NCBI GenBank assembly: GCA_963768805.1
Contig: CAVYJI010000019.1
Span: 277,991-341,990 of the forward strand
Source of the DNA: an uncultured Bacteroidales bacterium
GTDB lineage: Bacteria; Bacteroidota; Bacteroidia; Bacteroidales; FEN-979
Length of the DNA stretch: 64,000 nucleotides
Reading direction: 5' to 3'
Position 1 is the stretch's first letter. The number at the start of each line of letters is the position of its first letter. Below are positions 8,770-49,980 of the stretch, one piece after another. The notes below the pieces were generated by a model. That model searched no databases and was not told the origin of the DNA. It saw only the letters and a list, made by a program, of their open reading frames with translations. The position numbers were made by a program, and so were the translations under genes.

Positions 8770-9318
8770 TTACAGATATTTTACTGCTTTTTTAAAGGCG
8801 TTGCCACGTTCTTCATAATCTTTAAAGAGATCAAAACTTGGACAACCCGGTGAAAGGAGAATAACATCTCCCATTGTCCCCGCAACATAGGCCAGTTCAA
8901 CAGCTTCAGCCATTGTTGAAGCGTCCGTTATGGGAATTTTCAGATCGGACATTGACAAAATAAAATTTGTACTGTCGATCCCGAGAAAAATGATTGATTT
9001 GACTTTAGCGCGGAGCAAAGGTTTAAGCAGCGTATAATCGATACATGAATCTTTTCCTCCAGCGATCCAGATGACAGGTTTCGACATATTCTCCAGTGTG
9101 TACCAGGTAGAATTGATATTTGTTGACCTGGAATCATTGATAAATTCTATCCCATGCACATTCGTGACTAATTCCATCCGGTGCTCCATTTGTTGGAAAT
9201 CACAAAAACACTCCTTGATGAAATTACTTCTGACTTCATTAATCCGGGCTGAAATTGATGCTGCCATGGAACAATGCACGCCAGGATGTCCTTGTAAAGC
9301 CAATGTTTCTAATGTCAT
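8770..9318 (-). CDS. murD: UDP-N-acetylmuramoylalanine--D-glutamate ligase, C-terminal fragment only (truncated murD; possible pseudogene)
   Basis: 182 aa, matching only the last part of MurD (..F.QMEHRMELV..GIEFINDSRSTN.., ILLSPGCPSFDLFKDYEERG). The Rossmann-like N-domain and the GTNGKT ATP-binding domain are absent. Only 39 bp separate its ATG from the mraY stop, and an in-frame stop lies upstream. Confidence 0.8.
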   Translation of the reverse strand: MTLETLALQGHPGVHCSMAASISARINEVRSNFIKECFCDFQQMEHRMELVTNVHGIEFINDSRSTNINSTWYTLENMSKPVIWIAGGKDSCIDYTLLKPLLRAKVKSIIFLGIDSTNFILSMSDLKIPITDASTMAEAVELAYVAGTMGDVILLSPGCPSFDLFKDYEERGNAFKKAVKYL

Positions 9319-16192: not shown

Positions 16193-16338
16193 AATCACGG
16201 GTATAAACCCTAGGGCAAGCCCTGTACCTAAATTCCGCCCCAAGGGGCGGGATATTATACCCTCCGACTTCGTCGGGATTGTTCAACTATCAATTTTAAT
16301 TCACTATGTTCTTAAAATTGAAGTTTCACGAATAAATC
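16193..16338 (+). repeat. 146-bp structured intergenic repeat, copy 1 (upstream of the sigma-54 regulator gene)
   Basis: 138/146 identical to 17753-17898, and the last 66 bp are identical. It contains palindromes AGGGCAAGCCCT (16212-16223), CCGCCCCAAGGGGCGG (16235-16250) and CCGACTTCGTCGG (16264-16276). Confidence 0.9.
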
Positions 16339-17752: not shown

Positions 17753-17898
17753 AATCACGTGTATAAACCCCAGGGCAAGCCCTGGACCCTAATTCCGCCC
17801 CAAGGGGCGGGGTATTATACACTCCGACTTCATCGGGATTGTTCAACTATCAATTTTAATTCACTATGTTCTTAAAATTGAAGTTTCACGAATAAATC
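17753..17898 (+). repeat. 146-bp structured intergenic repeat, copy 2 (upstream of the PqqD-like gene)
   Basis: Same element as 16193-16338, offset by exactly 1560 bp in the same orientation. Confidence 0.9.
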
Positions 17899-17935: not shown

Positions 17936-18196
17936 ATGAAACTGCGAAAAAATGTTGCTGTAAGTGAAGCGGGTTTACTTTTCAATCCGGTGACCGGGGA
18001 ATCTTTTTCGGTTAACCCGATTGGTGTTGATATCATTAATCTGATCCGGGAAGACAAAGGGTTGGAGTACATCAGTAAATTCATACTTGCGAAGTATGAA
18101 ACAGATAAGGCCACATTTGAAAAAGATTATAATGATTTTATCGGGATCCTGGGACATAACAACCTTATAGAGACAAATGAAGAAAAGAAAGCTTAA
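17936..18196 (+). CDS. PqqD-family small protein (peptide-chaperone/RRE-like)
   Basis: 86 aa. Shows the LFNPVTGESFSVNPIGVDIINLI... pattern typical of PqqD-like winged-helix proteins. It overlaps the next gene by 20 nt. Confidence 0.65.
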   Translation: MKLRKNVAVSEAGLLFNPVTGESFSVNPIGVDIINLIREDKGLEYISKFILAKYETDKATFEKDYNDFIGILGHNNLIETNEEKKA

Positions 18197-19223
18197 CATT
18201 GCCATCACCGGGTTGAATGCGATAGACAGTCCGGGTCCCGGTATTCCTGTAATAAGAGCGCTGAGAGAGGCATCATCATTCGATGTAAGGATCATTGGTC
18301 TTTCCTATGAATCGCTTGAGCCGGGCATTTATATGCACGACCTTGTGGACCGCACCTATTCAATTCCTTATCCCACAGCCGGGACCGACACTTTACTTGC
18401 CCGTCTTGAATATATTCATGAAAAGGAGAAACTTGATGTGATCATCCCAAACTTCGATTCAGAACTTTTCCCGTTTATCAAACTGGAAATCAAACTCAGG
18501 GCACTTGGCATTCACATGTTCCTGCCGACGATTCATCAGTTTGAAGAGAGACAAAAGGTTAATCTCAATGAATTTGGGAAGAAGTACAACTTAAAAATCC
18601 CGAAAAGCAAAGCTGTTTGGGATCCAAATAACCTGTCCGGACTCAAGTCAGAATTCTCATTCCCCATGATCGTTAAAGGGAAATTTTACGAAGCCTCAGT
18701 TGCATACAGCATCGACCAGGTAAAAAGTTATTTCAATAAAATAAGCGCAAAATGGGGACTTCCCATCATCATCCAGGAATTCATCCTTGGGACAGAATAC
18801 AATGTGACCGGGCTAGGCGACGGCAAAGGCAATACAATTGCAGCTGTTCCGATGCGCAAACAATATATCACAGACAAGGGAAAAGCATGGGGAGGCATTT
18901 CGATCGCTGATGAGAAGATGATTGATATGACCCGCAAATTCCTGAAAACCACAAAATGGCGGGGCGGTTTTGAGTTAGAGCTGATGAAAAACAAAGACGA
19001 TGAGCTTTACCTGTTAGAAATAAACCCCAGACTGCCGGCATGGATCTACCTTGCAGTAGGAGTCGGACAAAATATTCCAGAAGCACTGGTCAACCTGGCC
19101 ATGGGAGTAAAAGTGAAACCTTTTACCACCTACGACGTAGGAAAAATGTTCATACGTTATTCATGGGATATGATCGTCGACAGGGAAGAATTCGAGAAGA
19201 TCAGCATTTACGGAGAGTTATAA
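18177..19223 (+). CDS. ATP-grasp domain ligase (carboxylate-amine ligase type)
   Basis: 348 aa with the ATP-grasp core: FPMIVKGKF, IIIQEFILGTEYNV, and ELYLLEINPRLPAW (the E-x-N Mg/ATP motif). Confidence 0.85.
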   Translation: MKKRKLNIAITGLNAIDSPGPGIPVIRALREASSFDVRIIGLSYESLEPGIYMHDLVDRTYSIPYPTAGTDTLLARLEYIHEKEKLDVIIPNFDSELFPFIKLEIKLRALGIHMFLPTIHQFEERQKVNLNEFGKKYNLKIPKSKAVWDPNNLSGLKSEFSFPMIVKGKFYEASVAYSIDQVKSYFNKISAKWGLPIIIQEFILGTEYNVTGLGDGKGNTIAAVPMRKQYITDKGKAWGGISIADEKMIDMTRKFLKTTKWRGGFELELMKNKDDELYLLEINPRLPAWIYLAVGVGQNIPEALVNLAMGVKVKPFTTYDVGKMFIRYSWDMIVDREEFEKISIYGEL

Positions 19224-19240
19224 CAATAAAAACATAAGAG

Positions 19241-20602
19241 ATGAACAAGTTGCGATATGAACGGCCTGTAATTAAGAAACTTGAGACCGGAATGCCAAAT
19301 AAATTCGGAACAAGGACAGAATATGAACCCATGATCCACATCGATGGTGTCGCAGTGAAAGATCTGATCAAAGAATTTGGCTCACCGTTATTTGTTATCT
19401 CAGAAAGGACCATCCGTGAAACAATAAAGAAGGCAAAAAAGGCTTTTGGTACCCGTTATCCTAAAGTTCAGTTTGCCTGGTCGTATAAGACCAATTATCT
19501 AAATGCTGTCTGCAGTATTTTCCATCAGGAAGGATCCTGGGCAGAAGTGGTATCGGGTTTTGAATACGAAAAAGCCATCAAACTGGGAGTAGATGGCAGG
19601 AAGATCATTTTTAACGGTCCTGATAAAAGTGAAAAAGATCTTACCAGGGCAATTACCAACGATTCTCTTATACATATTGATCATCTTGATGAATTATATT
19701 CCATAACAGAACTGGCTGATAAGCTTAAAAAACGTCCGCGAGTGGCTGTAAGGGTCAATATGGATACGGGGGTATATCCTATGTGGGACCGATTCGGGTT
19801 TAACTATGAAAACGGCCAGGCATGGGATGCCATCAACAAGATCATGCATTCAGAAAAGATGGAACTGGTCGGACTTCATTGCCATATCGGTACATTTATG
19901 TTTTCACCCTTTGCATACAGCACTGCAGCATCCAAGCTTGTCGAACTGGCACTTGCCATCGAACAGAAATTCAAGCATGAAATTCAATATATCGATATGG
20001 GAGGCGGGTTTGCTTCAAGGAACACACTGAAAGGATCCTACCTTCCGGGTTCCGACTCCAATCCAACTTTTGATGATTTTGCAGAAGCAATTTCCACAGC
20101 ACTGATAAACGGTAATTTCAAAAAAAACAAGCTGCCTTTACTTATTCTTGAAACCGGCCGTGCCTTGATTGATGAGGCTGGTTATTTGCTGGGAACCGTG
20201 ATCTCGAACAAGCGTTCAAGCTCCGGCCGTCGTAATACAATCATCGATGTCGGGGTTAATATCCTCTTTACATCTTTCTGGTATGATCACAAGATCACAC
20301 CGGCACAACCGTTCACACATTATTCCGAAGACACCTGCGTGTTTGGGCCGCTTTGCATGAACATCGATGTGATCCGCGAAAGCGCCAACCTGCCGCTGCT
20401 CAACATGGGAGACCATCTGGTGATCCACAACGTAGGCGCTTACAACATGACACAGTGGATGCAGTTCATTACTTTAAGGCCAAACGTGGTGCTGATAGAC
20501 ATGGACGAGAAACCACATCTGATCAGAATCAAGGAATCGCTGGAGAATATGAACGACATGGAGCGGATACCTTCATATCTAAAAAACCGGGAAAAAGCGT
20601 GA
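19241..20602 (+). CDS. PLP-dependent decarboxylase, Orn/DAP/Arg decarboxylase (fold-type III) family
   Basis: FAWSYKTNY (PLP-lysine region), HCHIGT, IDMGGGF and ILETGRALIDEAGYL motifs, with an N-terminal barrel plus C-terminal beta domain layout. Confidence 0.88.
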   Translation: MNKLRYERPVIKKLETGMPNKFGTRTEYEPMIHIDGVAVKDLIKEFGSPLFVISERTIRETIKKAKKAFGTRYPKVQFAWSYKTNYLNAVCSIFHQEGSWAEVVSGFEYEKAIKLGVDGRKIIFNGPDKSEKDLTRAITNDSLIHIDHLDELYSITELADKLKKRPRVAVRVNMDTGVYPMWDRFGFNYENGQAWDAINKIMHSEKMELVGLHCHIGTFMFSPFAYSTAASKLVELALAIEQKFKHEIQYIDMGGGFASRNTLKGSYLPGSDSNPTFDDFAEAISTALINGNFKKNKLPLLILETGRALIDEAGYLLGTVISNKRSSSGRRNTIIDVGVNILFTSFWYDHKITPAQPFTHYSEDTCVFGPLCMNIDVIRESANLPLLNMGDHLVIHNVGAYNMTQWMQFITLRPNVVLIDMDEKPHLIRIKESLENMNDMERIPSYLKNREKA

Positions 20603-20656
20603 TATTTGATAATTAATAAAATATCTGAACTTTGCACTTCATTTAAGGGTTGACAG

Positions 20657-21214
20657 TTGGGTTTAAATAAACTGAAATATCTATTACCCTCATTTTTCTC
20701 CGGTATAGTTAACAGTTATACTCAGATCTTCTTTTCGAACAGCAGGGTCTTTGCACTTATCCTGATGGTGGTGTCTTTTTTAGATTTCTGGGCGGGCTTG
20801 AGCGGCCTGATCGCAATTGTAATTTCGAATACCCTTGCTTACCTGATAGGGTTCAACCGGTTAAACATAAAAAAAGGCTATTATGGGTTTAACAGCCTGT
20901 TGGTCGGTTTGGCGCTCGGCATATACTATCAGCCCGGACCTGAATTTTTCATTGTACTCGTTTTTTCTTCGGTACTTACCCTTTTCCTCACTATACTCCT
21001 TGAAGGGGTTATCGGAAAATACGGATTGCCTTTCCTGAGTATTTCATTTTTACTTGCTACCTGGCTTGTAAGCCTTGCCACGCGGCAATTTACCGCGCTT
21101 CATGTCAGCGAGCGGGGCATCTTTATGACCAACGAGATGTTTGCATTAGGCGGACACCGGATGGTATCATTCTATAACTGGCTGTTAAACCTGGATATCT
21201 ATGGCCCTCGTTAG
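20657..21214 (+). CDS. Urea-transporter (UT/SLC14)-like membrane protein, first half-channel (TTG start)
   Basis: 185 aa, about 5 TM helices. The FFSGIVNSYTQIFFSNS...AGLSGLIAIVISNTLAYLIGF pattern resembles the first pseudo-repeat of UT channels. It stops inside a 14-nt overlap with the next ORF. Confidence 0.55.
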   Translation: MGLNKLKYLLPSFFSGIVNSYTQIFFSNSRVFALILMVVSFLDFWAGLSGLIAIVISNTLAYLIGFNRLNIKKGYYGFNSLLVGLALGIYYQPGPEFFIVLVFSSVLTLFLTILLEGVIGKYGLPFLSISFLLATWLVSLATRQFTALHVSERGIFMTNEMFALGGHRMVSFYNWLLNLDIYGPR

Positions 21215-22868
21215 AGTTTATTTTACTTCTCTCGGGGCCATTTTTTTTCAATATCATCTCTTTGCAGGTATACTTGTCGCTATAGGGCTTCTCATCTATT
21301 CACGAATTGCATTTATCCTCTCCCTGACAGGTTTCTTTTCAGCCTGGGCCTATTACCATTTTATTGGAGCCGATATCCGTGAACTCAGCTACAGTTTCAT
21401 CGGCTTTAATTTTATCCTCACTTCGATCGCCATTGGCGGTTTTTTCATCATTCCATCACGGTGGTCATTTTTATGGGTTATCCTTCTGACTCCACTAATT
21501 TCAATCATTCTGACAAGCACCAATGTTATATTTTCAATCTTTCAGCTTTCTGTTTATTCCCTGCCTTTCAACATCGTTGTCCTGATCTTTCTCTATTCGC
21601 TGAAGTTCAGGGAACGATTCTATGATAAACCCCAGTTGGTAACTTTCCAGCAATTTTCGCCTGAGAAAAATCTTTATTCGCACATGAATTACAAAGAGCG
21701 TTTCGGTAAATCACTTTTTTACACATTTGCCTTACCGTTCTGGGGTGAATGGAAAGTGACCCAAAGCCATAATGGCAAGTATACCCACCAGGGCGATTGG
21801 CGTCATGCATGGGATTTTGAAGTGACTGATGAGGAGGGGCTTACTTACTCAGGAAGTGGAAAAACCCGGGAAGACTACTATGCATACAACAAACCAGTAA
21901 TTGCGCCTGCTGATGGCTATGTGGAAGAGATTGTTGATGATATTGAGGAAAATGAGATAGGAGAGTCGGACCTGGAACATAACTGGGGAAACACCATCAT
22001 CCTTCGCCATTCGGACCATCTTTATTCAACGCTGTCACACCTTAAAAAAGAAAGCTTTAAAGTGGCAGAAGGAGATACCGTGAAGAAGGGACAGGTTCTT
22101 GCAAATTGCGGGAGTTCGGGACGGTCGCCTGTGCCTCACCTTCATTTCCAGATCCAGGGAAACCCTTATATAGGATCGAAAACACTAGATTATCCTATCA
22201 GTCATTATATCCGTCATAAAGATGGGAATTTCGAGCTAAGATCATATGAATCGCCTGAAAACGATGTCCTTGTATCGAATATTACAAAAAACAGCTCTTT
22301 GAAAAAGGCATTTCATTTTATCCCCGGGCAAAAGTTCAGATTCGCTGCAATTGAGACAGGGGAGAAGGAATACCAGGTAAACTGGGAGGTTCAGGCCGAT
22401 GCCCTCAACAATACCTCTATTTATTGCGAATCCAGCAGATCGCGTGCATATTTCCGTAATGATGGCGATATTCATTATTTTACCCATTTTGAGGGAAATA
22501 AATCATCGCTGCTCTTTAAATTTTATCTTGGAGCTTACAAGATAATGATGGGGTATTACAGCAACCTGCTGGTGAAAGACCGGCTACCAGTAAACACATT
22601 CAACAATCCGTTGGTAAAGCTTGGGCAGGATTTTCTTGCTCCATTTCTGATCTTTTCCTGTTCAGAGTACAGTCTTACTTATCTGAACATGAATGATGCA
22701 CTCATGCAAACCAATATCAGGTTACGGTCGATGATACGTGCAAAGGTTGGCAGGCATGAAATTAAAAAGCTGGAATGTGAGTTGTTTGTTGGACCCGAGG
22801 GGCTCGAGCGGTTCGTGATCCATGAAAGTAAGCGATTAACCGAAGTCAGACTTGTGCAAGAAAAATGA
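21201..22868 (+). CDS. Fusion protein: second UT-like half-channel + M23 (LytM) metallopeptidase + C-terminal domain of unknown function
   Basis: The N-terminal ~130 aa (YFTSLGAIFFQYHLFAGILVAIG...) mirror the motif of the previous ORF. The M23 domain has HQGDWRHAWDF and GSSGRSPVPHLHFQI (H-x-H). About 230 further residues have no recognisable motif. Confidence 0.8.
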   Translation: MALVRVYFTSLGAIFFQYHLFAGILVAIGLLIYSRIAFILSLTGFFSAWAYYHFIGADIRELSYSFIGFNFILTSIAIGGFFIIPSRWSFLWVILLTPLISIILTSTNVIFSIFQLSVYSLPFNIVVLIFLYSLKFRERFYDKPQLVTFQQFSPEKNLYSHMNYKERFGKSLFYTFALPFWGEWKVTQSHNGKYTHQGDWRHAWDFEVTDEEGLTYSGSGKTREDYYAYNKPVIAPADGYVEEIVDDIEENEIGESDLEHNWGNTIILRHSDHLYSTLSHLKKESFKVAEGDTVKKGQVLANCGSSGRSPVPHLHFQIQGNPYIGSKTLDYPISHYIRHKDGNFELRSYESPENDVLVSNITKNSSLKKAFHFIPGQKFRFAAIETGEKEYQVNWEVQADALNNTSIYCESSRSRAYFRNDGDIHYFTHFEGNKSSLLFKFYLGAYKIMMGYYSNLLVKDRLPVNTFNNPLVKLGQDFLAPFLIFSCSEYSLTYLNMNDALMQTNIRLRSMIRAKVGRHEIKKLECELFVGPEGLERFVIHESKRLTEVRLVQEK

Positions 22869-24373
22869 GAAAATTTATTTTTTTATTTATCCAAATCCTA
22901 TTCATCACAAGTATTGCAAGGTCCCAGGCCAGGCTTGATTTCAGGGTGGTTGATGAAAAGACAGGCCGATATTTCAATGAACAGAAATGGGATAGTGTAA
23001 TCAGGCTTGGGAAGAAGGCATTGCACCAAAGTATCGATTATTATTATCTGAGGGTAAGAATGGGCATCTCATATTTTAAGAAACAGAAATACTTCACTGC
23101 AGTTTCATTCCTGAAGAAAGCAAGTACATTTAACTCTGCTGATTCAATGATCACGGATTATCTATACCGTTCTTATCTATATACTAACAATGAGGATGAA
23201 GCACAAATACTAAAGAATAAAATACCAAAAGAAGCCCGGGTCACAAAAACATCAAGAAACGGAATCCTTGAGCAGGTTCATTTTGAAGGAGGATATAGCC
23301 TGAGCAATGACAAGTCATCAGTTAATATTCCAAACCTAAGTGGAACATTCAAAACTTCCAAGGACAATGACTATTATAGTGAGCAGGATCTTTATGGAAA
23401 CAGTTGGTATGGTAATCTTGGATTGACGATGAGGATATTTAAAAGATTAAGCCTTTCATTATCGTACAATTATCTCAGCCTGGATAAATCTACATATATC
23501 CAGGACGGTCATTTTCAGGATCGTTTTATGGGTACTGTCGATTCAGCCGGGGGGAAACTTTACCGTTATACGTTCCCCTGGATCACCCACGATACAAGTT
23601 TTCATTATACTATTATACAGCATGAAGGACACCTCGGCATCACAGTGACTTTACCGGCAGGATTTAAAATCCAGCCGGCATTTCATCTTATCTATGTGGC
23701 ATATAAAACGACCAATGTCAACTTCAGGGCGGGAACCATACAGGACACTGCTTATCATTCGCCAACTAAAACCACCTATCATCCCTTTACCCATTATGAC
23801 TATTCATTTGTTCAGAATGACACTTCATTTTACAATTATGTGATATCACTCCTGGTCACAAAAGATATTAAGATATTTAATATAGGGTTATCTCTTAGTT
23901 GGTCCAACCTGAACAATATGACACAGGAACAAGCAGGACTTATGCTGACATATTACCCGCTCGGGAACCTTGATTTTTACGGAACAACAGCTGCAACAGG
24001 TTTTTTACAGGGAAATGAGAGCCGCATACTTCTGAGCCAGGTATTGGGCACAAAAGTCACAAGATGGTGGTGGCTTGAAGGAAATTTCTATTGGGGCAAT
24101 TATTCCAATACCAATATTTTCAATGGCGCTGTAGTTTATAATAACAGCGATAAAATTGATTACCATGCCGGGGTTTCACTGATTTTTATCCTCGGTAAAC
24201 ATGTTCAGCTATCATTAATATACCAGTATCTAAGTGAAGAAAGCCCGCTGTTCTATAACGTTAAAAGGCCGGCTCCGGGACAGGGTCCGTTGCAGATCAA
24301 TGAACAACCGCAAATAACATATATCCCGTATAACACTAACACAATAATAGGAGGAATCACATGGAAACTTTAG
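22865..24373 (+). CDS. Secreted protein: N-terminal TPR-like helices plus a putative outer-membrane beta-barrel (hypothetical)
   Basis: Signal peptide MRKFIFLFIQILFITSIARSQA. The C-terminal ~350 aa have an alternating aromatic/polar beta-strand pattern (YSLS.., LSLSYNYLSL, LSLIYQYL). ATGA start/stop overlap with the upstream gene. Confidence 0.45.
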   Translation: MRKFIFLFIQILFITSIARSQARLDFRVVDEKTGRYFNEQKWDSVIRLGKKALHQSIDYYYLRVRMGISYFKKQKYFTAVSFLKKASTFNSADSMITDYLYRSYLYTNNEDEAQILKNKIPKEARVTKTSRNGILEQVHFEGGYSLSNDKSSVNIPNLSGTFKTSKDNDYYSEQDLYGNSWYGNLGLTMRIFKRLSLSLSYNYLSLDKSTYIQDGHFQDRFMGTVDSAGGKLYRYTFPWITHDTSFHYTIIQHEGHLGITVTLPAGFKIQPAFHLIYVAYKTTNVNFRAGTIQDTAYHSPTKTTYHPFTHYDYSFVQNDTSFYNYVISLLVTKDIKIFNIGLSLSWSNLNNMTQEQAGLMLTYYPLGNLDFYGTTAATGFLQGNESRILLSQVLGTKVTRWWWLEGNFYWGNYSNTNIFNGAVVYNNSDKIDYHAGVSLIFILGKHVQLSLIYQYLSEESPLFYNVKRPAPGQGPLQINEQPQITYIPYNTNTIIGGITWKL

Positions 24374-25062
24374 TAAGTCACAGAGTCACAGAGTCACAAA
24401 GTCACAAAGTAATAGAATTTCGCCATCCCACCACCTGCTGGCAGGCAAGCAGGTTTTACTATTTTGCTATTTTACTATTTCTGCTTATCTCGCCGGTTCT
24501 TCACTCACAAAACTATCCTGCCCTCCAGGAGGCATTCGGTAAAAGTTATGACTATGAAGCCAAGGGAAATTATACAGAAGCGATTTCGGCCTTAAAGAAT
24601 GTGTATCAAGAAGATTCATATGAAATCAACCTTCGCCTTGGATGGGAAACCTATCTTGCGGGGCTTTTTACTGAATCGTCAGCTTATTATGAGAAGGCTA
24701 TAAACCTTAAACCTTATGCGATTGAGCCCAAATTCGGGTTTGTTTACCCTGCTTCAGCGTTAGGGAACTGGGACCAGGTCATTGCCCAGTATAATGAGAT
24801 CCTGAAGATCGATTCTCAGAATACGCTTGCAAACTACCGGATGGGATCGATCTATTATGGCAGAAAGGATTATGCAAAAGCTGACAAATACCTTGAGAAG
24901 ACTATAAACCTCTATCCTTTTGATTATGACAGCCTTATTCTATATGCATGGACGAACTTAAAACTGGGAAAGATGCGCGAAGCCCAGGTCCTCTTTAACA
25001 AGGTGTTACTGAATCGGCCAAAAGACTCTTCAGCACTTGAGGGGCTTTCTCTTATCAAGTGA
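24361..25062 (+). CDS. Tetratricopeptide-repeat protein (secreted or lipoprotein-like)
   Basis: Hydrophobic signal-like segment FYYFAILLFLLISPVLHSQ followed by TPR units (AISALKNVY.., SSAYYEKAINLKP, ANYRMGSIYYGRKDYAKADKYLEKTINLYP). 13-nt overlap with the upstream gene. Confidence 0.7.
   Translation: METLVSHRVTESQSHKVIEFRHPTTCWQASRFYYFAILLFLLISPVLHSQNYPALQEAFGKSYDYEAKGNYTEAISALKNVYQEDSYEINLRLGWETYLAGLFTESSAYYEKAINLKPYAIEPKFGFVYPASALGNWDQVIAQYNEILKIDSQNTLANYRMGSIYYGRKDYAKADKYLEKTINLYPFDYDSLILYAWTNLKLGKMREAQVLFNKVLLNRPKDSSALEGLSLIK
24376..24410 (+). repeat. 8-bp tandem repeat (AGTCACAR x4.4) at the 5' end of the TPR gene
   Basis: AGTCACAG AGTCACAG AGTCACAA AGTCACAA AGT, read directly. It starts 3 nt after the stop of the upstream gene. 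Confidence 0.85.
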
Positions 25063-27609: not shown

Positions 27610-28410
27610 TTAATATTCGATACCGCGCAGAAAAATCCATCCACAATAATTACCGCCATTTTTAATGGTGAGAACATAATAATAAGTTCCATCCGGCAAA
27701 GGTCTGCCATCCTGCCTTGTTCCTTGCCAGACCTTCGAAAAGTTATCATAATGATCGAACCTGTTGACGATGTCTCCCCACCGGTTAAAAATAATGACAT
27801 TATTATCAGGAAAATTTTCTATGCAATCAATGATCCATTTGTCGTTCAGCCCATCCCCGTTAGGTGTTATCACGTTGTGGAACACAAGGCAAGCTTCATT
27901 TATTTCATTATTCAAGACCTTTATCCTTACAGAATCAGTGCCCAGGCAACCATTAAGAAGATCAGTGACCATGAGGATAAACAGGGTGTCATGAGTCAGT
28001 TTGACCGTTTCGGGGTCAAGCAAAGTGTCCTCGGTAAGAAGGGCAGATGGTCTCCAAACCCATGAATAACTTCCTGAACCCCCGGAGATGCTTCCATTCA
28101 GCATCGTAGCCGAATCATAAGGGATTACCTGGTCGGGCCCTGCCTCAGCAACGGGTGATCGCTGGGTAATGAAATGAAATGGTGGAGATAAAGACCCGTC
28201 TCCGCAGAGATTCCTTCCATAAACATATATGTCACCTGTTTTGATTGAAGTGTCGATTGAAACGGTAATTATGTTTGTCCCCATGCCATCAAGGATTTGA
28301 AAACCTGGAGGCAGCTGCCAGGAGTATGTTGTGGCAAACAGGATAGTGTCAACTGAATAAGACTCATCAGCAGTACCGGTGCAATGCTGCACAGGGCCAG
28401 AAATATTGCC
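27610..28410 (-). repeat. Dispersed repeat: 3' cassette shared with the adhesin gene at 49180-49980
   Basis: The last 266 codons of both genes align colinearly. The last ~147 codons are nearly identical at protein and DNA level (e.g. PSALLTEDTLLDPETVKLTHDTLFILMVTDLLNGC). Confidence 0.9.
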
Positions 28411-30414
28411 TGCCTGCCCGGGAACAGGATAGACCCGGATGGGGAAATTTGTAGCGACTGATGCGGTGCAACCCTCGGGTGTGGTGTAATTGACACTGAC
28501 AAACTGACTTCCGGGGCTATTCCACTTCACGCTGATCTGGTTAGTCCCTAACCCTGAAATTATTGTTCCTCCCGAAGATATAGTCCATTGATAATTTGAC
28601 ATGCCGGCTTCAGTCTGGTAGAAATAAGAAATTGAATCCTGGCATGGGTTGTTATTTCCTGTGATGCCCGGAGTTACTGAATGAATTGATAGCTGAACTG
28701 TGTCTCCGTTCCAGCACCCGTTTGAATCTGTTACTTCCACATTATATACCCCGGCAATGCCGGTTGTAAATGTTTGACCTGTTCCAATATTGAATTGACC
28801 CGTAGTAAGATCAGACCATGAAAATAAACAACCGATGCATGGGCCGGCATTAAAAGTTACCGTGTTTCCCTGGCATATGGAGGTATCAGGTCCAAGATTA
28901 ACAGGGGTAACGGGGAAAATAGTCACATAAACAGTATTACTGGTTGCCGGGTTATTCGTTGCACAGGTCAGGTTTGAAGTCAACATACATGAAACCGCGT
29001 CATTATTTGACGGAACATAAGTATACTGAGGTGAATCCGTCCCTTTGTCAAGACCATTTACTTTCCATTGAAACGAAGGACTTGTCCCGCCATTAGCAGG
29101 CGTGGCTGTGAATGTTACCGGTCTTCCTGGACAGATCGGATTTTGTGAGGCAGTTATAGAAACATTCACCGGAAAATAAGGAATAACAGTCATTATTATA
29201 CTATTACTTAATGCCGGATAACTCATTGGACAGGGCAGGGAAGAAAACAAAAAGCAGGAAACCGTGTCATCGTTTGATGGAGTGTAGGTGAATTGAGATG
29301 AATCAGAACCCACATTGATCCCATTGACACGCCAAAGATAGAATGGTGTTAAACCGCCATTAGAAGGTATTGCGGTGAATGTCACCGGAGTGCCTGAACA
29401 AGCTGGATTTTGGGAACCGGTTATTGAAATGCTGACTGGCAATTCAGGAATGACAGTCATTATTATCACATTGCTTAAAGCAGGATTATTCGTTGTACAT
29501 AGACTTGATGTGAGTTCACAAGTCACCATATCACCATTTAAAGGGCTATAAGTAAATGTTTGACTGTTGGACCCGATATTGGTTCCATTAACTTTCCACT
29601 GAAATATTGGCGAATTGCCACCATTGACAGGGGAAGCAGTAAAAATTACAGAACTCCCTGAACAGACCGGGTTATCTGATGCTGTTATCGTGATGCTGAC
29701 ATTAACTGGTGGATTTGATATGGTTCCACGAAAATAAGGGTTTATTGTATCCTGAAGTTGTGAACCAATAGGTATTCCATTATATGCTGGATTCCCCTGG
29801 ACATTAATATAATTCCCGTTAAACTTATAATATGCCAACAATCCATGCTGAGAGGCCGGGTTAGGAAGGTTGTACATATTATTTATAATTTCGGATTGAG
29901 AGCGTGCAACATTCCATATTCGTAATTCATCAATATACCCAAAAAATTGTTCATTGGCAAATGGATCTGAAATACTGCCTATTGCGGCCAGGTGCGTATT
30001 TTGAAACAAAGTACCTGTCCATTGCACTGAAGCCACTTCATTACCATTGACAAAGTACTTTATGCTATCACCATCGTAAGTGCCTGCAACATGGTAAATT
30101 GAATCCAGACAGTATTTGAAAGTATTATCAACTTCTTTATATCCTGATGTTGTGGTTACCTGGAATCTCCACCGTCTTAGCAAATAATTGCAATCTACAA
30201 CACCAACATGCTTTGACACAATATCTTTTTCCGGATTGGTAGTTGTATCTGTAAGCGCAATCAATGCTTCGACAGTTATTGAATCGCCGGGAACATTCAG
30301 CTGGCCTATATTGACCCAATTTTTTGGTATCCCCGTGGGGAAGTATAGCCAATCCTGTCCAAAAGCAATAGCAGATAACAATGAAAAAACTGTAATCAGA
30401 CCTATCTTGATCAA
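27610..30414 (-). CDS. Large T9SS-secreted adhesin-like protein (LamG-like domain, Ig-like repeats, type-B/CHU_C C-terminal sorting domain); proposed TTG start at 30414
   Basis: Signal peptide (M)IKIGLITVFSLLSAIAFGQ, an LamG-like region (LRIWNVARS), and 3 x ~89-aa repeats. The C-terminal part is FHNVITPNGDGLNDKW...FNRWGDIV...DGTYYYVL, the gliding-motility-type CTD. The track ORF extends to 30483, but those codons lie inside the IS terminal repeat. Confidence 0.85.
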   Translation of the reverse strand: MIKIGLITVFSLLSAIAFGQDWLYFPTGIPKNWVNIGQLNVPGDSITVEALIALTDTTTNPEKDIVSKHVGVVDCNYLLRRWRFQVTTTSGYKEVDNTFKYCLDSIYHVAGTYDGDSIKYFVNGNEVASVQWTGTLFQNTHLAAIGSISDPFANEQFFGYIDELRIWNVARSQSEIINNMYNLPNPASQHGLLAYYKFNGNYINVQGNPAYNGIPIGSQLQDTINPYFRGTISNPPVNVSITITASDNPVCSGSSVIFTASPVNGGNSPIFQWKVNGTNIGSNSQTFTYSPLNGDMVTCELTSSLCTTNNPALSNVIIMTVIPELPVSISITGSQNPACSGTPVTFTAIPSNGGLTPFYLWRVNGINVGSDSSQFTYTPSNDDTVSCFLFSSLPCPMSYPALSNSIIMTVIPYFPVNVSITASQNPICPGRPVTFTATPANGGTSPSFQWKVNGLDKGTDSPQYTYVPSNNDAVSCMLTSNLTCATNNPATSNTVYVTIFPVTPVNLGPDTSICQGNTVTFNAGPCIGCLFSWSDLTTGQFNIGTGQTFTTGIAGVYNVEVTDSNGCWNGDTVQLSIHSVTPGITGNNNPCQDSISYFYQTEAGMSNYQWTISSGGTIISGLGTNQISVKWNSPGSQFVSVNYTTPEGCTASVATNFPIRVYPVPGQAGNISGPVQHCTGTADESYSVDTILFATTYSWQLPPGFQILDGMGTNIITVSIDTSIKTGDIYVYGRNLCGDGSLSPPFHFITQRSPVAEAGPDQVIPYDSATMLNGSISGGSGSYSWVWRPSALLTEDTLLDPETVKLTHDTLFILMVTDLLNGCLGTDSVRIKVLNNEINEACLVFHNVITPNGDGLNDKWIIDCIENFPDNNVIIFNRWGDIVNRFDHYDNFSKVWQGTRQDGRPLPDGTYYYVLTIKNGGNYCGWIFLRGIEY

Positions 30415-30430
30415 TCTTCTTTCCTTTTTT

Positions 30431-31758
30431 GGTTCTTTGTAAAAGTAAGTGGGTAAATTTACGAAAAAAAAATAAAAAGTCAAGTAAAATATATGTTGTC
30501 ACAAGAAGATTTATTTGCCAAGGCACTGATGGTAGAGCAACCATGGTTTGTTGATAAAGTTCAGTTTGACCAAGAGGGTGGTAAACTTGAGATTTGGATT
30601 GATTTTGAGCGTGGTTCGACATTTTACTATGAGGATAAAGAGTTAGGCATCAAAGGTCATTTTAAAGCTTATGACACGTCCCAAAAGACGTGGAGGCATC
30701 TTAATTTTTTTCAGTATCAATGCTATCTTCATGCATGGATTCCAAGGGTTGATATCGGGGATGGCAAAGTAAGACAGGTTCAGGCTCCATGGGAAGGTCA
30801 TGCGGCAGGCTTTACACTCCTTCTTGAAGCATTGATACTTGAGTTGGTAAAAGTCATGCCAGTTCATCAGGTAAATCAGTTGTTGGGAGTTTATGATGAA
30901 AAGCTGTGGAAGATGATTAAGGCTTATACCGAGACGGCTCGTGCCCGTGAAGATTTTTCTTCTGTCGAAGTAGTTGGATTGGACGAGAAAGCTATTCGCA
31001 AGGGCCATGATTACGTTACGCTATTTGTTGATCTTGAAGAAAAAAGAACCTTGTTTGTAACTGAAGGACGGGATCATGAAGTGGTAGTTGATTTTGTAAA
31101 TGATCTCGTAGCCCACAATGGGAATGCAGAGCAAATCAGCCAGATTTCCTGTGATATGTCTCCTGCATTTATACTCGGTGTCGAAAAAAATTTGCCGAAT
31201 GCGGACATTGTATTTGACCGATTCCATGTTACAAAAGTCCTCAACGATGCGGTTGATAAGGTTCGCAAAGCGGAAGTAGCAACCAATCCTATCCTGAGAA
31301 ACTCCAAATACCTTTTTCTTAAAAATAGATGTAACCTTAGCGAATGGCAACAACAACGACTTGAAGAAATTAAGATTAGTGGACTTAACCTGAAAACCAT
31401 GAAAGCCTTGATGATTCGGGAGGCCTTTCAACAGATCTACGAAGCTCCCTCTGTTGAAATCTTTGATAAACTTCTCCGAAAGTGGTACTTCTGGGCAACT
31501 CACAGCCGTATAGAACCTATAAAAGAAGCTGCATACACTATTCAAAGGCACTGGCATGGTGTTGTTAACTGGATCTTATATAAAATCAGTAACGGTATTT
31601 TGGAGGGATTTAATTCTATTTTTCAAGCTGCTAAAGCTAAAGCAAGAGGTTACAAAAGGCCTGATACGATCAAAGCAATAATTTATCTTCTAACTGGTAA
31701 ACTCGACTTTAGTAAAATAAATCCATATTACGTTACCCACTCGAAATTATAAAGAGCC
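30431..31758 (+). mobile_element. ISL3-family insertion sequence (1328 bp) with imperfect terminal IRs and an 8-bp target-site duplication
   Basis: IRL is GGTTCTTTGTAAAAGTAAGTGGGTAA (30431-30456). The reverse complement of IRR is GGCTCTTTATAATTTCGAGTGGGTAA (31733-31758), matching at 18/26. The direct repeat CCTTTTTT sits at 30423-30430 and 31759-31766. There is a single transposase ORF. Confidence 0.9.
30493..31752 (+). CDS. ISL3 family transposase
   Basis: 419 aa with an N-terminal zinc-ribbon/HTH-like region. DDE-type core shows GLDEKAIRKGHDY, SCDMSPAF and the late NGILEGFNS motif typical of ISL3 transposases. Confidence 0.92.
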   Translation: MLSQEDLFAKALMVEQPWFVDKVQFDQEGGKLEIWIDFERGSTFYYEDKELGIKGHFKAYDTSQKTWRHLNFFQYQCYLHAWIPRVDIGDGKVRQVQAPWEGHAAGFTLLLEALILELVKVMPVHQVNQLLGVYDEKLWKMIKAYTETARAREDFSSVEVVGLDEKAIRKGHDYVTLFVDLEEKRTLFVTEGRDHEVVVDFVNDLVAHNGNAEQISQISCDMSPAFILGVEKNLPNADIVFDRFHVTKVLNDAVDKVRKAEVATNPILRNSKYLFLKNRCNLSEWQQQRLEEIKISGLNLKTMKALMIREAFQQIYEAPSVEIFDKLLRKWYFWATHSRIEPIKEAAYTIQRHWHGVVNWILYKISNGILEGFNSIFQAAKAKARGYKRPDTIKAIIYLLTGKLDFSKINPYYVTHSKL

Positions 31759-37582: not shown

Positions 37583-40500
37583 ATGCAAAAATTTTTACGT
37601 GGTTCCTTAAGGCTGATTATCTTAATTTCTTCTGGTGTTATACTGGTCCCGGGCAAGCAGAATAACATTTATGCAGAAGGCACCAAACAGCTTTTACCCG
37701 ATTCAACAATATCTCAAGCAGGACTTTACATCGATAATTCACCGGGAACAGTTTATACGAATTTTGCGGTGGCCAATTGTCCTGCCAATTACAGGTTATA
37801 CATCCATGTTAAGAATGTAGGTGAATCTATTCTCTTCGGTTTTGAGACAAACTATGCTAATGTTCCATTCACCTTGCGAAAACCAAACGGGACTGTAGCT
37901 ATGACGGGGATTATCTCTTACCATGTAGGTCAGACAGGCTATATTGAGTATTACCACCAGGCCATTGTAGGGCCTTTCCCTGCCTATGGAGGGTATTCAC
38001 CATTTTCATACCAGGTGACCAGCATTGCAGATACAGGTAATTATTATTTCGATATCCCGACCTCAATCACCTATCCCGTTGAGATTGAGATGTGGGATTT
38101 CCAGGTTGTATCGGGACAACATAATCCTGCTATACCTTCTGATGCCATTAACGGGCGTGTCTGGTCACAATCGTGGCAGCTTTATGCCAGTCTCGGATAT
38201 GGACCCTCGGATTACTCTCCTTTTAACGGTTCATTTTATATTTATTCCGATGATGGGATTGTTACAAAGCTGGCTTTTTCCAATGCAGCAGTCGGGGCCG
38301 TCACGATCTTTTGCAATCTTTACGGATGTTTGAATACAGGTAACTTCTTAACTGACCGGCAATCAAATAACAACAACACCTTCCTTACCTTTCCTGCCAT
38401 AGCACAGTATAAGGTTTTTCTCAATAACCCTGATTCCACTCTATATCCCAGCGGATTTTACGGTAAGATCGTAGGGACACCTTATATGATACCTGATACA
38501 GCTTATCCCCCGTGTAGCGGGAAAAAACTTATTGTCGTGGATGTCGATAAGATAGGTAAGGTCCAGGTGACAATTACTTTTCCTTATGGTGCGCCGGGCA
38601 CAGATGTGTCATTATGTTCCAATGTCGTTCCGGGTATCAATTATATTTACTGGAATGGATTGGATGGTCTGGGAAATCCGGTTCCTGACGGGACACAGCT
38701 CTCGGTCAATGTGCAATATATGAACGGGTTGACGAATTTACCTATCTGGGACCAGGAAATGAACCCGGATGGTTATATTGTAACATTGGTCAGGCCATCA
38801 AATGCGTCAGGATTACAGCCTCCAACCTTCTGGGATGATTCCCAATTAGTCCCAAACACAAATGGTGATCCGTGCAACAATCCGCCCCAGACTGTCAACT
38901 TCACTGGCTGTACTCCCGGTTCCATGCCGGGCTATACAGGATGTCATCCCTGGCAACCGGTTGATGGCTATTGTCATAATAAGATGATAAACACCTGGTG
39001 GTATGGAAGTACCACCAATTCACCTGTATTGGTATATTATAGCATAACCCCGGCACCCCCTGTCGGTAATAATGTTACCCGGTGCGGACCTGGAGCCGAT
39101 ACCCTTAAAGTGACCGTTGTTCCTTCAGCTTTAACAGCAGACTGGTACAACGCAGCAACAGGTGGAATTTTGCTTTTGTCCGGTTCTACGACTTTTGTGA
39201 CCCCTTTATTAAACACTACTACCACATTTTATGCTGACTCCAGAGATCCAATCTCAGGATGCATCAGCGCTACCAGGACTCCCATTACTGTAACCATCAA
39301 CCCGCTTCCGGTGCCAACGGTAACAGGACCCACACTGGTTTGTGATAACTCATCAGGGAATATTTATTTGACCCAGGCAGGGATGAAGAATTATACATGG
39401 TCTGTATCAGCAGGAGGGATTATTACTTCCGGCGGGGCCACAACAAACAACTCTGTTACTGTTACGTGGACCTCCATTGGGATCCAGACTGTAAGCGTAA
39501 GCTATACCAATTTAAATAACTGTACCGCTGCTTCGCCTACCGTCTATCCTGTTACCGTCGATTCCCCAGTGTCAGTCATTGTTCAGCCATCGAACAGTGC
39601 AGTCTGCAATGGTTCAAGCACATCATTCAGTGTCTCGGCGACGGGCACAGGACTTACTTTTATCTGGCAGGACAATACCGGAACCGGATGGACCAGTCTT
39701 TCCAATGGTGGCGTTTACAGCGGCGTCACAACTGATTCACTGATCATCAGCAGTGTAACAAACGGCATGAACGGATACAGTTACCACTGTATAATTAATG
39801 GATCATGCTCTCCAGCACAAACCAGCAATTCAGCTTTACTGACGGTCAACCCGATCCCAACAGTCACTGCTGCCCCGCCTTCCCAGGCAATCTGTTCAAC
39901 GGGTACCACTAATATCGTTTTATCAAGCACAACGGGTTCAACAACATATACATGGACCATCAATACAGTACCGGCAGGAAGCATCAGTGGTGCATATGCA
40001 GGAAGCGGTAGCTTTATTTCCCAGACACTGATCAACACAACGGCCATCCCGGCAAGCGTGACCTACACTGTTACGCCTGTTGCCAATGGTTGTCCCGGGC
40101 TTCCCTTACCAGTCGTTGTGACAGTTAACCCTGTACCGAATGCAACCGCCACGCCGGCGGCCCAAACGATCTGTTCTACAGGAACAACCAATATAAACCT
40201 TTCAAGTTCTATACCCTCTTCAACGTTTACCTGGACAGTTGCAGTATCTCCGGCAGGAAGCGTTACCGGAGCCTTGGGCGGCGCCGGAAATGCCATTGTG
40301 CAAACGCTTACGAACGGAACCCCTGACCCTGCCCAGGTTACTTACACAGTTACCCCGTTGGCAAACGGATGTCCGGGGTCACCTGTAAATGTAGTTGTTA
40401 CGGTCAACCCGACACCGGTGGCCATTGCAGCACCGCCTTTCCAGACAATATGTTCAACAGGCTCCATGAATATTGTTCTGTCAAGTGCAACGCCGTTAAC

Positions 40501-49160: not shown

Positions 49161-49179
49161 GAGGCTGGATGCCGGGTAT

Positions 49180-49980
49180 TCAAAATTTGTTACCCCGCAA
49201 TAAGATCCATCCACAATAATTGCCGCCACTTTTAATGGTGAGAACATAATAATAAGTTCCATCCGGCAAAGGACTGCCATCTTTCATTGTTCCTTTCCAG
49301 ACCTGGGAAATGTTATCGTAATGATCGAACCTGTTAACGATGTCTCCCCACCGGTTAAAGATAATGACTTTATTATCAGGAAAATTCTCTATGCAATCAA
49401 TGATCCATTTGTCGTTCAACCCATCCCCGTTAGGGGTTATTACGTTGTGAAAGACCAGGCAATCATTATTTATTTCAGGATTCAGGACCTTTATCCTCAC
49501 AGAATCAGTGCCCTTGCAACCATTAAGAAGGTCGGTGACCATGAGGATAAACAGGGTGTCATGAGTCAGTTTGACCGTTTCGGGGTCAAGCAAAGTGTCC
49601 TCGGTAAGAAGGGCAGATGGCTGCCAGAGCCAGGAATAGGTTCCTGAGCCGCCTGTTATGCTTCCATTCAATTTCGTAGTCGAATTATAAGGGATAGACT
49701 GGTCAGGCCCTGCATCAACAACTGGTGATCGCTGACTGATGAAATGAAATGGTAGAGATAAGGCACCGTCTCCGCAAGAGTTTATACCATATACGTAAAT
49801 ATCACCAGAGATGAATGAGGTATCGATTGAAACTGTAATACTGTTTGTTCCCAGTCCGTTAATGATTTTGAAAGCAGGAGGTAGCTGCCAGGAATAAGTC
49901 GTAGCAAAAGAAATAGTATCGACAGAAAAAGTTTCAGTTGCAGTAGCAGTGCAATGTTGTTGAGGACCGGTGATATTGCC
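49180..49980 (-). repeat. Dispersed repeat: 3' cassette shared with the adhesin gene at 27610-28410
   Basis: See 27610-28410. Same strand, offset 21,570 bp. Confidence 0.9.

Follow-up and report, generated by a model that had tools for sequence, protein, structure and literature searches.

Is a urea-transporter-like channel encoded by two genes at this locus, or has an ordinary gene been interrupted? The window, which is the whole 64,000 nt stretch of DNA analysed, has two overlapping open reading frames (ORFs) on the + strand. The first (ORF1, 20657-21214) has a TTG start, encodes 185 amino acids including FFSGIVNSYTQIFFSNS, and ends with the TAG at 21212-21214. The second (ORF2, 21201-22868) has an ATG start and encodes 555 amino acids including YFTSLGAIFFQYH. 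The two overlap by 14 nt (ATGGCCCTCGTTAG), and the frame of ORF2 contains a TAA at 21186-21188. Every sequence feature described in a first-pass annotation of the locus was confirmed. That annotation offered two interpretations: a frameshifted single gene, or a natural pair of genes each encoding half a channel. The latter, if true, would mean that the urea transporter (UT) fold survives being divided at its symmetry boundary. Our analysis leads to the former. ORF1 and ORF2 are one gene, for a 736-residue inner-membrane protein, with the frame broken after the codon for Pro184.

One uninterrupted gene in all relatives

Membership of the UT family had been named at the outset as a point on which the identification might fail. 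Judged by profile comparison, it holds far beyond chance for both ORFs. The Pfam UT profile (PF03253, 292 positions, cut-off 25 bits) matches ORF1 across positions 3-141 (E 1e-30, 107 bits) and ORF2 across positions 160-290 (E 5e-25, 89 bits). Against the NCBIfam Yut profile (TIGR03441), ORF1 scored 78.5 bits and ORF2 scored 43.5, far under the equivalog cut-off of 274.6. Such scores mark the channel part as a member of the UT superfamily and not as a Yut orthologue.

ORF1 (20657..21214) spans UT repeat 1 and the linker between the halves. It corresponds to residues 1-184 of the intact protein, followed by an aberrant Arg and the stop codon. UT repeat 2 occupies the start of ORF2 (21201..21620, + strand). 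A profile-profile comparison of the two halves with hhalign gave an E value of 0.0012 and an offset of 172 residues. With this offset, the break at residue 184/185 is equivalent to residue ~12/13 of repeat 1. Hence, the gene is indeed split at the internal pseudo-symmetry boundary, as had been proposed.

An alignment of orthologues across the junction had been suggested as a check. All 80 of the GTDB species-representative loci examined have a single open frame there. In each of these, and in all intact alleles, the two homologous 5-TM halves are in a single polypeptide. The same is true much closer to home. At least 10 contigs of the same species, from no fewer than 10 samples, have an intact gene, which encodes protein P0001 (8 contigs) or P0123 (2 contigs). 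Thus, every other assembly of the species has a gene of ~736 codons uninterrupted at the junction. The top 120 protein homologues are also single ORFs, of 700-743 amino acids, with UT and M23 peptidase domains together. A survey of ~15 billion catalogued proteins located the split pair on exactly one contig. All relatives, near-identical strains included, have one unbroken gene, and no other contig has the lesion. The first of the two original interpretations, a frameshifted single gene, is borne out.

Origin of the junction lesion

The lesion is at 21208..21212, where the sequence of the window is CCCTCGTTAG, with a net gain of 1 nt. The population has two forms of the junction codon, ...CCT CTC AGA... 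(Leu, allele A) and ...CCC GTT AGA... (Val, allele B). Aligned at the lesion, allele A is CCCTC-TCAG and allele B is CCC-CGTTAG. The window has ...CCT C GTT AGA..., which is one base too many and a hybrid of the two alleles. The 'G' and 'T' of the Val allele are present on a Leu allele backbone, and a 'T' absent from the Val allele is retained. At all of the flanking markers (21046, 21182, 21218 and 21305) the window matches allele A. Across 5,245 nt, the window and sequence L005 differ by one gap (the extra G at 21210) and one mismatch (T versus C at 21212). At the protein level, differences of P0001 and P0123 (736 amino acids each) from the reading of the window are confined to the junction. 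The lesion is the sole private indel of the window within the 21.4 kb compared. It lies outside any homopolymer, the classic context for Nanopore errors. Phase variation was considered as a cause of the split and dismissed, because the lesion has no repeat tract.

We conclude that one ordinary gene has been split by a single extra base. Most likely, with a probability of about 0.8, this is a consensus error between strain variants. We infer that assembly, and not a mutation in a cell, produced the lesion. At the junction codon, with its three adjacent SNPs, reads of two co-occurring strains would have been piled up. A consensus or polishing step would then merge the Leu and Val alleles and leave one surplus base. 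If so, the source reads should be a mixture of CCCTCTCAG and CCCCGTTAG, with few or none containing CCCTCGTTAG. The position of the break, on the pseudo-symmetry boundary, is explained by the linker between the repeats, which is the least constrained part of the channel. Being the least constrained, the linker is also the most polymorphic, and mixed-strain errors gather at such sites.

Errors of this type are common in assemblies of the same class. Three of five ENA 'contig_N' sister assemblies have, between them, 23 private single-base indels in the same regions; five Logan assemblies of these regions have none. The indels interrupt deC, murC, the ATP-grasp gene and, at other positions, the UT-M23 gene. 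The contig of the window itself has a second private insertion (+1 G at 42492), which breaks a gene for a 3,858-residue PKD/SprB adhesin that is intact on three sister contigs. A truncated murD (182 amino acids) was considered as a further assembly defect and dismissed, since it recurs in each of the five sister contigs, one of them from a Logan assembly. The documented method for 'MFD' MAGs, the nearest named relatives of this family, is Flye followed by a single round of Medaka, using Nanopore data only. Some related MAGs bear the label Draconibacterium or Prolixibacteraceae. From the contig naming and the error pattern, we infer that the contig of the window is also from a Nanopore-only project. 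Besides the lack of a homopolymer at the lesion, two observations count against a consensus error. First, the 21.4 kb compared contain no private indel but this one, so the assembly is not noisy in general. Second, the new stop codon overlaps neatly with an in-frame ATG that was already there (ATG...TAG). Such an overlap could, in principle, provide a basis for translational coupling.

An alternative is a genuine frameshift, recent and specific to one strain, that disabled or shortened the gene and left a young pseudogene. It could have arisen, for example, where the Leu and Val alleles recombined imprecisely; a real recombination junction between co-occurring strains could also give an A/B hybrid. 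The lesion is present in the sequence as given and, since there is no further difference from L005, the event would have to be very recent. However, the variant is on one contig only, and the insertion at 42492 would require two fresh pseudogenes in 64 kb. With no other divergence, two consensus errors are likelier than two independent fresh pseudogenes. Furthermore, errors of this class are frequent in the sister long-contig assemblies, whereas the Logan assemblies have none. We consider a genuine frameshift unlikely.

The second possibility raised by the first-pass annotation was a functional two-gene channel. Here, ORF1 (5 TM) and ORF2 (5 TM plus M23) would be coupled, and their products would form a heterodimer-like protomer. 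Many inverted-repeat membrane proteins tolerate splits between repeats. Split or half-size relatives of such proteins include semiSWEET (versus SWEET), Fluc and EmrE-type dual-topology pairs. The proposed channel would resemble these in having a protomer built from two separately encoded homologous halves. The break is also suitably placed, since the linker at the repeat boundary is variable and probably periplasmic, and an ATG with a 14 nt overlap exists. But the half-size genes of the semiSWEET, Fluc and EmrE types are conserved across many genomes. Conversely, the UT split is private to one contig, is present in 0 of 80 orthologues, and shows no sign of selection for the arrangement. The best 150 of 1,322 representative hits included no conserved class of stand-alone, half-size UT proteins; short UT entries in this set had a continuous spread of lengths and scattered ends or out-of-frame tails. 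A natural half-channel pair is therefore highly improbable. There is similarly little chance that the extra base is real and that coupled half-products still assemble a working channel, which would make this a very young split UT.

A further possibility is recoding where the frames overlap, such as programmed +1 ribosomal frameshifting. This would restore a full-length protein, but shift sites are conserved and CCCTCGTTAG has neither a slippery nor a repeat tract; recoding is effectively refuted because the extra base is absent from every relative, strains of 99.9% identity included. Returning to the consensus error, the appropriate annotation for the locus is one CDS interrupted by a frameshift (20657..22868, + strand; 2,211 nt and 736 amino acids in intact alleles). 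Like caution should be applied to the frameshift at 42492.

The intact UT-M23 protein

The fusion of UT and M23 domains is real and consists of a full 10-TM UT domain joined to M23. The original description, of an M23 peptidase attached to half a channel, was thus correct in its peptidase part (64 bits in Pfam); the half-channel is an effect of the frameshift. The fusion had also been thought unusual. This is not so: UT-M23 is widespread in Bacteroidales. At least 569 GTDB species genomes encode it, and it is found in more than 4,000 protein clusters. It is already labelled 'urea transporter/peptidase M23' at NCBI and JGI.

The channel part has two homologous halves, like the dvUT, Yut, UT-A and UT-B (SLC14) channels. 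Residues 5-341 of P0001 align with residues 9-334 of Desulfovibrio vulgaris dvUT (PDB 3K3F; E 8e-20). Foldseek matched a model of UT-M23 to dvUT with an E value of 1e-12 and a TM-score, normalised to the target, of 0.72-0.74; confidence in the UT part of the model is only moderate (pLDDT 45-85). The pore motif of the first half, YYGFNSLL (F78 and N79 invariant), aligns with LFGFNGTL of dvUT. That of the second half, IGFNFIL (F250 in at least 90% of sequences, N251 invariant), aligns with LYGFNSVL. The GFN motif, conserved or invariant in both halves, carries the filter phenylalanines and includes the equivalent of dvUT residue F80. The proteins also differ. Identity between UT-M23 and dvUT is only ~22%, and the family has a near-invariant Ala in place of dvUT residue E187. 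Unlike known urea channels, UT-M23 has ~400 extra residues at the C-terminus, comprising the M23 domain and a β-rich domain, and is encoded in an ATP-grasp/decarboxylase operon.

The M23 part (21750..22172, + strand) is an M23/LytM-fold zinc-peptidase-like domain. Pfam Peptidase_M23 matches residues 229-320 of ORF2 (E 2e-17, 63.7 bits, cut-off 28.7). Foldseek matches to the fold include DipM, Csd1/2, EnpA and lysostaphin (E 1e-6 to 3e-5). Its closest known counterparts are lysostaphin, LytM, zoocin A and ShyA, together with the degenerate LytM factors EnvC, NlpD and DipM. The motifs SHL (H461) and PHLHF (H494 and H496; HxH) are invariant in UT-M23 and align exactly with the catalytic His motifs of lysostaphin and zoocin. 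The region of the first metal motif, THQGDWRHAWDF, is different. M23/LytM metallopeptidases have a canonical Hx3D spacing, whereas UT-M23 has RHAWDF (Hx2D; H383-x2-D386) followed by an insertion of ~25 residues. Residues H377 and D386 are invariant and could be metal ligands.

The location of the M23 domain, raised as a question from the start, was addressed by topology prediction. Past residue 330, beyond the UT domain, there is no TM segment (hydropathy peaks at 1.08). In 61 sequences, K/R counts were 11.3 inside versus 0.18 outside. Because of these two properties, the domain is predicted to be cytoplasmic. Classical M23 enzymes work on peptidoglycan outside the cytoplasmic membrane. By topology prediction, the UT-M23 domain, fused to a channel, is placed on the opposite side. 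The β-rich domain of ~230 residues at the C-terminus (22170..22865, + strand) was modelled by AF2 with a pLDDT of 87. It matched no Pfam family, and Foldseek detected a weak likeness to open barrels of the LolA/RseB type, with TM-scores of only 0.25-0.39, too weak a match to assign the domain to that fold.

A conserved operon

The UT-M23 gene is the fourth in a conserved six-gene operon, all on the + strand. The first gene (17936..18196) encodes an 86-residue PqqD family protein (Pfam PqqD, E 9e-9) and is found at 63 of the 80 loci. It is followed by an ATP-grasp ligase (ATPgrasp_Ter/ATP-grasp_3; 18177..19223; 68 loci, 66-88% identity) and a PLP-dependent decarboxylase (19241..20602; 72 loci). 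The stop codon of UT-M23 overlaps the start (ATGA) of a gene for a 502-residue protein of no known family, whose N-terminus resembles a signal peptide (22865..24373; 76 loci). The last gene encodes a TPR protein of 233 residues (24361..25062; 72 loci). There is no urease or urea metabolism gene among the six, and the genomic context of the putative channel does not point to urea metabolism.

The decarboxylase is closest to FslC, the N-citrylornithine decarboxylase of the rhizoferrin pathway (PDB 7KH2; E 1.6e-62, versus 1e-43 for LysA). Its score against the NCBIfam FslC profile (E 1e-73, 248 bits) is under the cut-off of 500. The enzyme also matches BtrK, the glutamyl-carrier-protein decarboxylase of the butirosin pathway. 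Both FslC and BtrK act on amino acids that are already conjugated, and the operon has an adjoining ATP-grasp ligase. However, there is no NIS synthetase, and the partners here differ from those of both the FslC and BtrK pathways, being PqqD, UT-M23, the 502-residue protein and the TPR protein. A search of the literature for the UT-M23 fusion, or for the PqqD/ATP-grasp/decarboxylase cluster in Bacteroidetes, found nothing relevant.

A hairpin-rich repeat of 146 nt is located upstream of the operon. It was considered as a precursor-peptide gene, as a known RNA and as part of the conserved system. All three were dismissed: there is no convincing ORF and no Rfam match, and the repeat is confined to this species and its closest relative.

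Because the split is most likely a private consensus error, it is uninformative with respect to the evolution of such channels and, as originally posed, has no value as a window on that process. Instead, the locus illustrates that single-base indels can arise in long-read metagenome assemblies where co-occurring strains differ at a cluster of adjacent SNPs. Such indels preferentially strike variable linkers, where a 'domain-boundary split' seems biologically meaningful. The lead that remains is the intact UT-M23 protein, with its predicted cytoplasmic M23 domain, encoded in a conserved operon in hundreds of Bacteroidales species. This system merits separate study.

The UT-M23 gene and its relatives

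ORF1 (20657-21214, forward strand) begins with a TTG codon, encodes 185 aa and stops at the TAG at 21212-21214. ORF2 (21201-22868, forward strand) begins with ATG and encodes 555 aa; its frame is closed upstream by a TAA at 21186-21188. The overlap between the two is ATGGCCCTCGTTAG. These coordinates are present in the window sequence exactly as listed in the first-pass annotation, which also placed both products in the urea transporter (UT) family. Profile searches agree. ORF1 matches positions 3-141, and ORF2 positions 160-290, of the 292-position Pfam UT profile (E 1e-30 and 5e-25). A Peptidase_M23 match covers ORF2 residues 229-320 (Pfam, E 2e-17). With the NCBIfam Yut model, the ORF1 match ends at position 167 and the ORF2 match begins at 163. 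The matches abut and thus give the picture of a single interrupted gene. Profile-profile comparison of the two UT halves (E 0.0012, offset 172 residues) placed residue 184/185 right where the second internal repeat begins, confirming that the split falls at the repeat boundary.

We used a conceptual fusion of ORF1 and ORF2 as the query for homologues. It matched over 4,000 clusters of related proteins. Among the best 120, nearly all are 700-743 aa in length, UT and M23 occur together in every case, and the few shorter proteins appear truncated. The best match, P0001, is the intact 736-aa protein of the same species. It is 99% identical to the fusion and follows the window's reading exactly, except at the junction, which reads ...NLDIYGPLRVYFTS... 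When GTDB was scanned with one genome for each species, a gene for a relative was present in at least 569 of the genomes. For the best 80 of these, residues ~1-736 were matched in one frame, and an explicit ORF check found that frame open across the junction in all 80 loci. In the three loci that the check flagged, the sole difference is one of 1-2 codons where the match ends at the C-terminus. The alignments support the proposal of a frameshifted single gene.

Origin of the extra base

The DNA alignment of same-species loci contains two alleles at the junction. Allele A (8 loci) reads GGC CCT CTC AGA GTT, encoding Leu, and allele B (2 loci) reads GGC CCC GTT AGA GTC, encoding Val. The window reads GGC CCT C GTT AGA GTT. 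Relative to allele A, a G is added at 21210 and C is replaced by T at 21212; relative to allele B, a T is added at 21208. The window is in the A state at every flanking marker that distinguishes A from B (21046, 21182, 21218 and 21305), and one allele A locus, L005, equals the window over 5,245 nt, save 21210 and 21212. Allele-B reads aligned on an allele-A backbone would place CCC-CGTTAG over CCCTC-TCAG. Were B's insertion and substitution accepted, and B's deletion not, the result would be exactly the window's CCCTCGTTAG. The lesion is thus a hybrid: it combines two alleles that circulate together and has one surplus base. At this position of the linker, Leu and Val both occur naturally in the family. 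No part of the channel varies more than the linker between the UT halves. Clusters of adjacent SNPs between strains, and with them mixed-strain consensus errors, are likeliest there, which offers a mundane explanation for a break at the repeat boundary.

We counted private single-base indels over 21.4 kb that the window has in common with sister (same-species) loci, of which up to ten were compared. In the window there is a single one, the G at 21210. Sister ENA 'contig_N' assemblies have 23, in three of five assemblies (L001/L091, 4; L009, 15; L010/L094, 4), and five Logan assemblies have none in the same regions. In the sister ENA assemblies the neighbouring decarboxylase gene is broken into 331 + 86 aa, murC into 134 + 347 aa, the ATP-grasp gene is disrupted (310 aa) and UT-M23 is broken at other positions (678 aa and 394 aa versions). 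Users of L001/L091, L009 and L010/L094 should beware of such sporadic indels. The window's own contig has a second private +1 G at 42492 (CACGT[G]CGCT). Here, a giant PKD/SprB-repeat adhesin gene is split into forward-strand ORFs 37583-42610 and 42447-49160 (1,675 + 2,200 aa), and on three sister contigs it is one gene for a 3,858-aa protein. On other sister contigs the adhesin gene is broken at different places. Of the genomes that bear a name, the closest are 'MFD' MAGs, whose contigs are named in the style of Flye. The documented method for such MAGs is Flye with one Medaka round on Nanopore-only data, and the window may stem from the same project.

Because of the indel pattern in the sisters, the second +1 G and the character of the nearest genomes, we favour a consensus artefact as the source of the extra base (probability about 0.8, judged from assembled sequence). 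Two points count against an artefact: the lesion is outside any homopolymer, and the rest of the window is clean. Both would suit a genuine, recent, strain-specific frameshift, which we consider unlikely.

A functional split of the channel is highly improbable. None of the 80 species loci is split, so the idea of a natural half-channel pair is not supported. An exhaustive search with ORF1 alone, against 1.84 billion cluster representatives, gave 1,322 matches. No half-UT class was found among the best 150; short entries there have a continuous spread of lengths, with scattered ends or out-of-frame tails, and are fragments and other frameshifts. In a catalogue of ~15 billion proteins, the split pair (P0121 and P0122) occurs on exactly one contig (379,627 bp), and its 90% cluster also contains intact versions, encoded on at least 10 contigs of different samples. 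Recoding at the overlap is more improbable still. Most likely, the half-channel split that made the locus attractive is not biological.

Features of the intact protein

Residues 5-341 of P0001 align end to end with the solved Desulfovibrio vulgaris urea channel dvUT (PDB 3K3F, residues 9-334; E 8e-20), and the GFN pore motifs are conserved in both halves. An AlphaFold2 model of the intact protein has a mean pLDDT of 72 (UT part 45-85, soluble part 85-93). Its TM-score against dvUT, normalised to the target, is 0.72-0.74, and M23/LytM domains are matched as well. The M23 and C-terminal domains are encoded at 21750-22865 (forward strand). The M23 domain is a putative enzyme; it retains the catalytic 'SHL' His and 'PHLHF' HxH motif, and H377 and D386 are invariant. 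In the first metal-binding motif (zinc), the canonical Hx3D is replaced by RHAWDF (Hx2D), followed by a ~25-residue insertion. The C-terminal ~230 residues have a confident, beta-rich fold (pLDDT 87) for which no Pfam family was found. This fold is weakly like LolA/RseB-type open barrels (TM-score 0.25-0.39).

No hydrophobic segment was found after the UT domain. Predicted inward loops contain 11.3 K/R per protein, versus 0.18 in the short outward loops (means of 61 sequences). Both termini of mammalian UTs are inside the cell. Hence, the M23 and C-terminal domains are predicted to lie in the cytoplasm, an atypical location for an M23 peptidase. The fusion had been thought unusual. It is real but not rare, given those 569 or more species genomes, and several homologues already bear the name 'urea transporter' or 'peptidase M23' (NCBI, JGI). 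The fusion is thus widespread and already annotated.

The gene cluster and other features of the window

In the dcw cluster, the only murD sequence is a 182-aa ORF with the Mur_ligase_C domain (8770-9318, reverse strand), between mraY and ftsW. The five sister contigs, one of them from a Logan assembly, all share the short form, so it is a genuine species feature. Full-length murD is presumably encoded elsewhere. The 3' ends of a PKD/CHU_C-domain gene (27610-30483) and a 1,545-aa gene (49180-53817) were also compared. The segments 49177-50012 and 27610-28450 (reverse strand) are 84-90% identical, and encode paralogous C-terminal (CHU_C-type) domains.

A 146-nt direct repeat is present in two copies (16193-16338 and 17753-17898, forward strand; ~94% identical), one ~100 nt upstream of a sigma-54 activator gene and the other preceding the PqqD gene by ~40 nt. 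The repeat has three G+C-rich hairpins (CCAGGG-CAAG-CCCTGG, CCGCCC-CAAG-GGGCGG and CCGAC-TTCG-TCGG). It contains no convincing ORF, matches no Rfam family and is confined to the window's species and its nearest relative, L011.

UT-M23 is the fourth gene of a six-gene cluster (17936-25062, forward strand). Among the 80 species loci, from Bacteroidales/Prolixibacteraceae-type genomes, the cluster is conserved in all those that have flanking sequence (63-76 of 80). The genes encode, in order, a PqqD-family protein (86 aa), an ATP-grasp ligase (66-88% identity), a PLP-dependent, FslC-like decarboxylase (72-95%), UT-M23 (55-84%), a 502-aa protein of no known family with a signal-peptide-like N-terminus (26-76%) and a TPR protein (233 aa). 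The ligase and decarboxylase are better conserved than UT-M23 or the 502-aa protein. We found no published account of this cluster in the literature.

The decarboxylase's nearest solved relative is the N-citrylornithine decarboxylase FslC (7KH2, E 1.6e-62). The match to LysA is weaker (E 1e-43), and BtrK is also among the matches. Because the substrates of FslC and BtrK are amino acids already conjugated, the ligase and decarboxylase may generate an amide-linked, decarboxylated small molecule or modified peptide. UT-M23 could process the product at the cytoplasmic side, transport it or a by-product through the inner membrane, or do both. The two envelope proteins would act further out. A pathway in which the ligase/decarboxylase product is handled by UT-M23 is a reasonable inference from the cluster.
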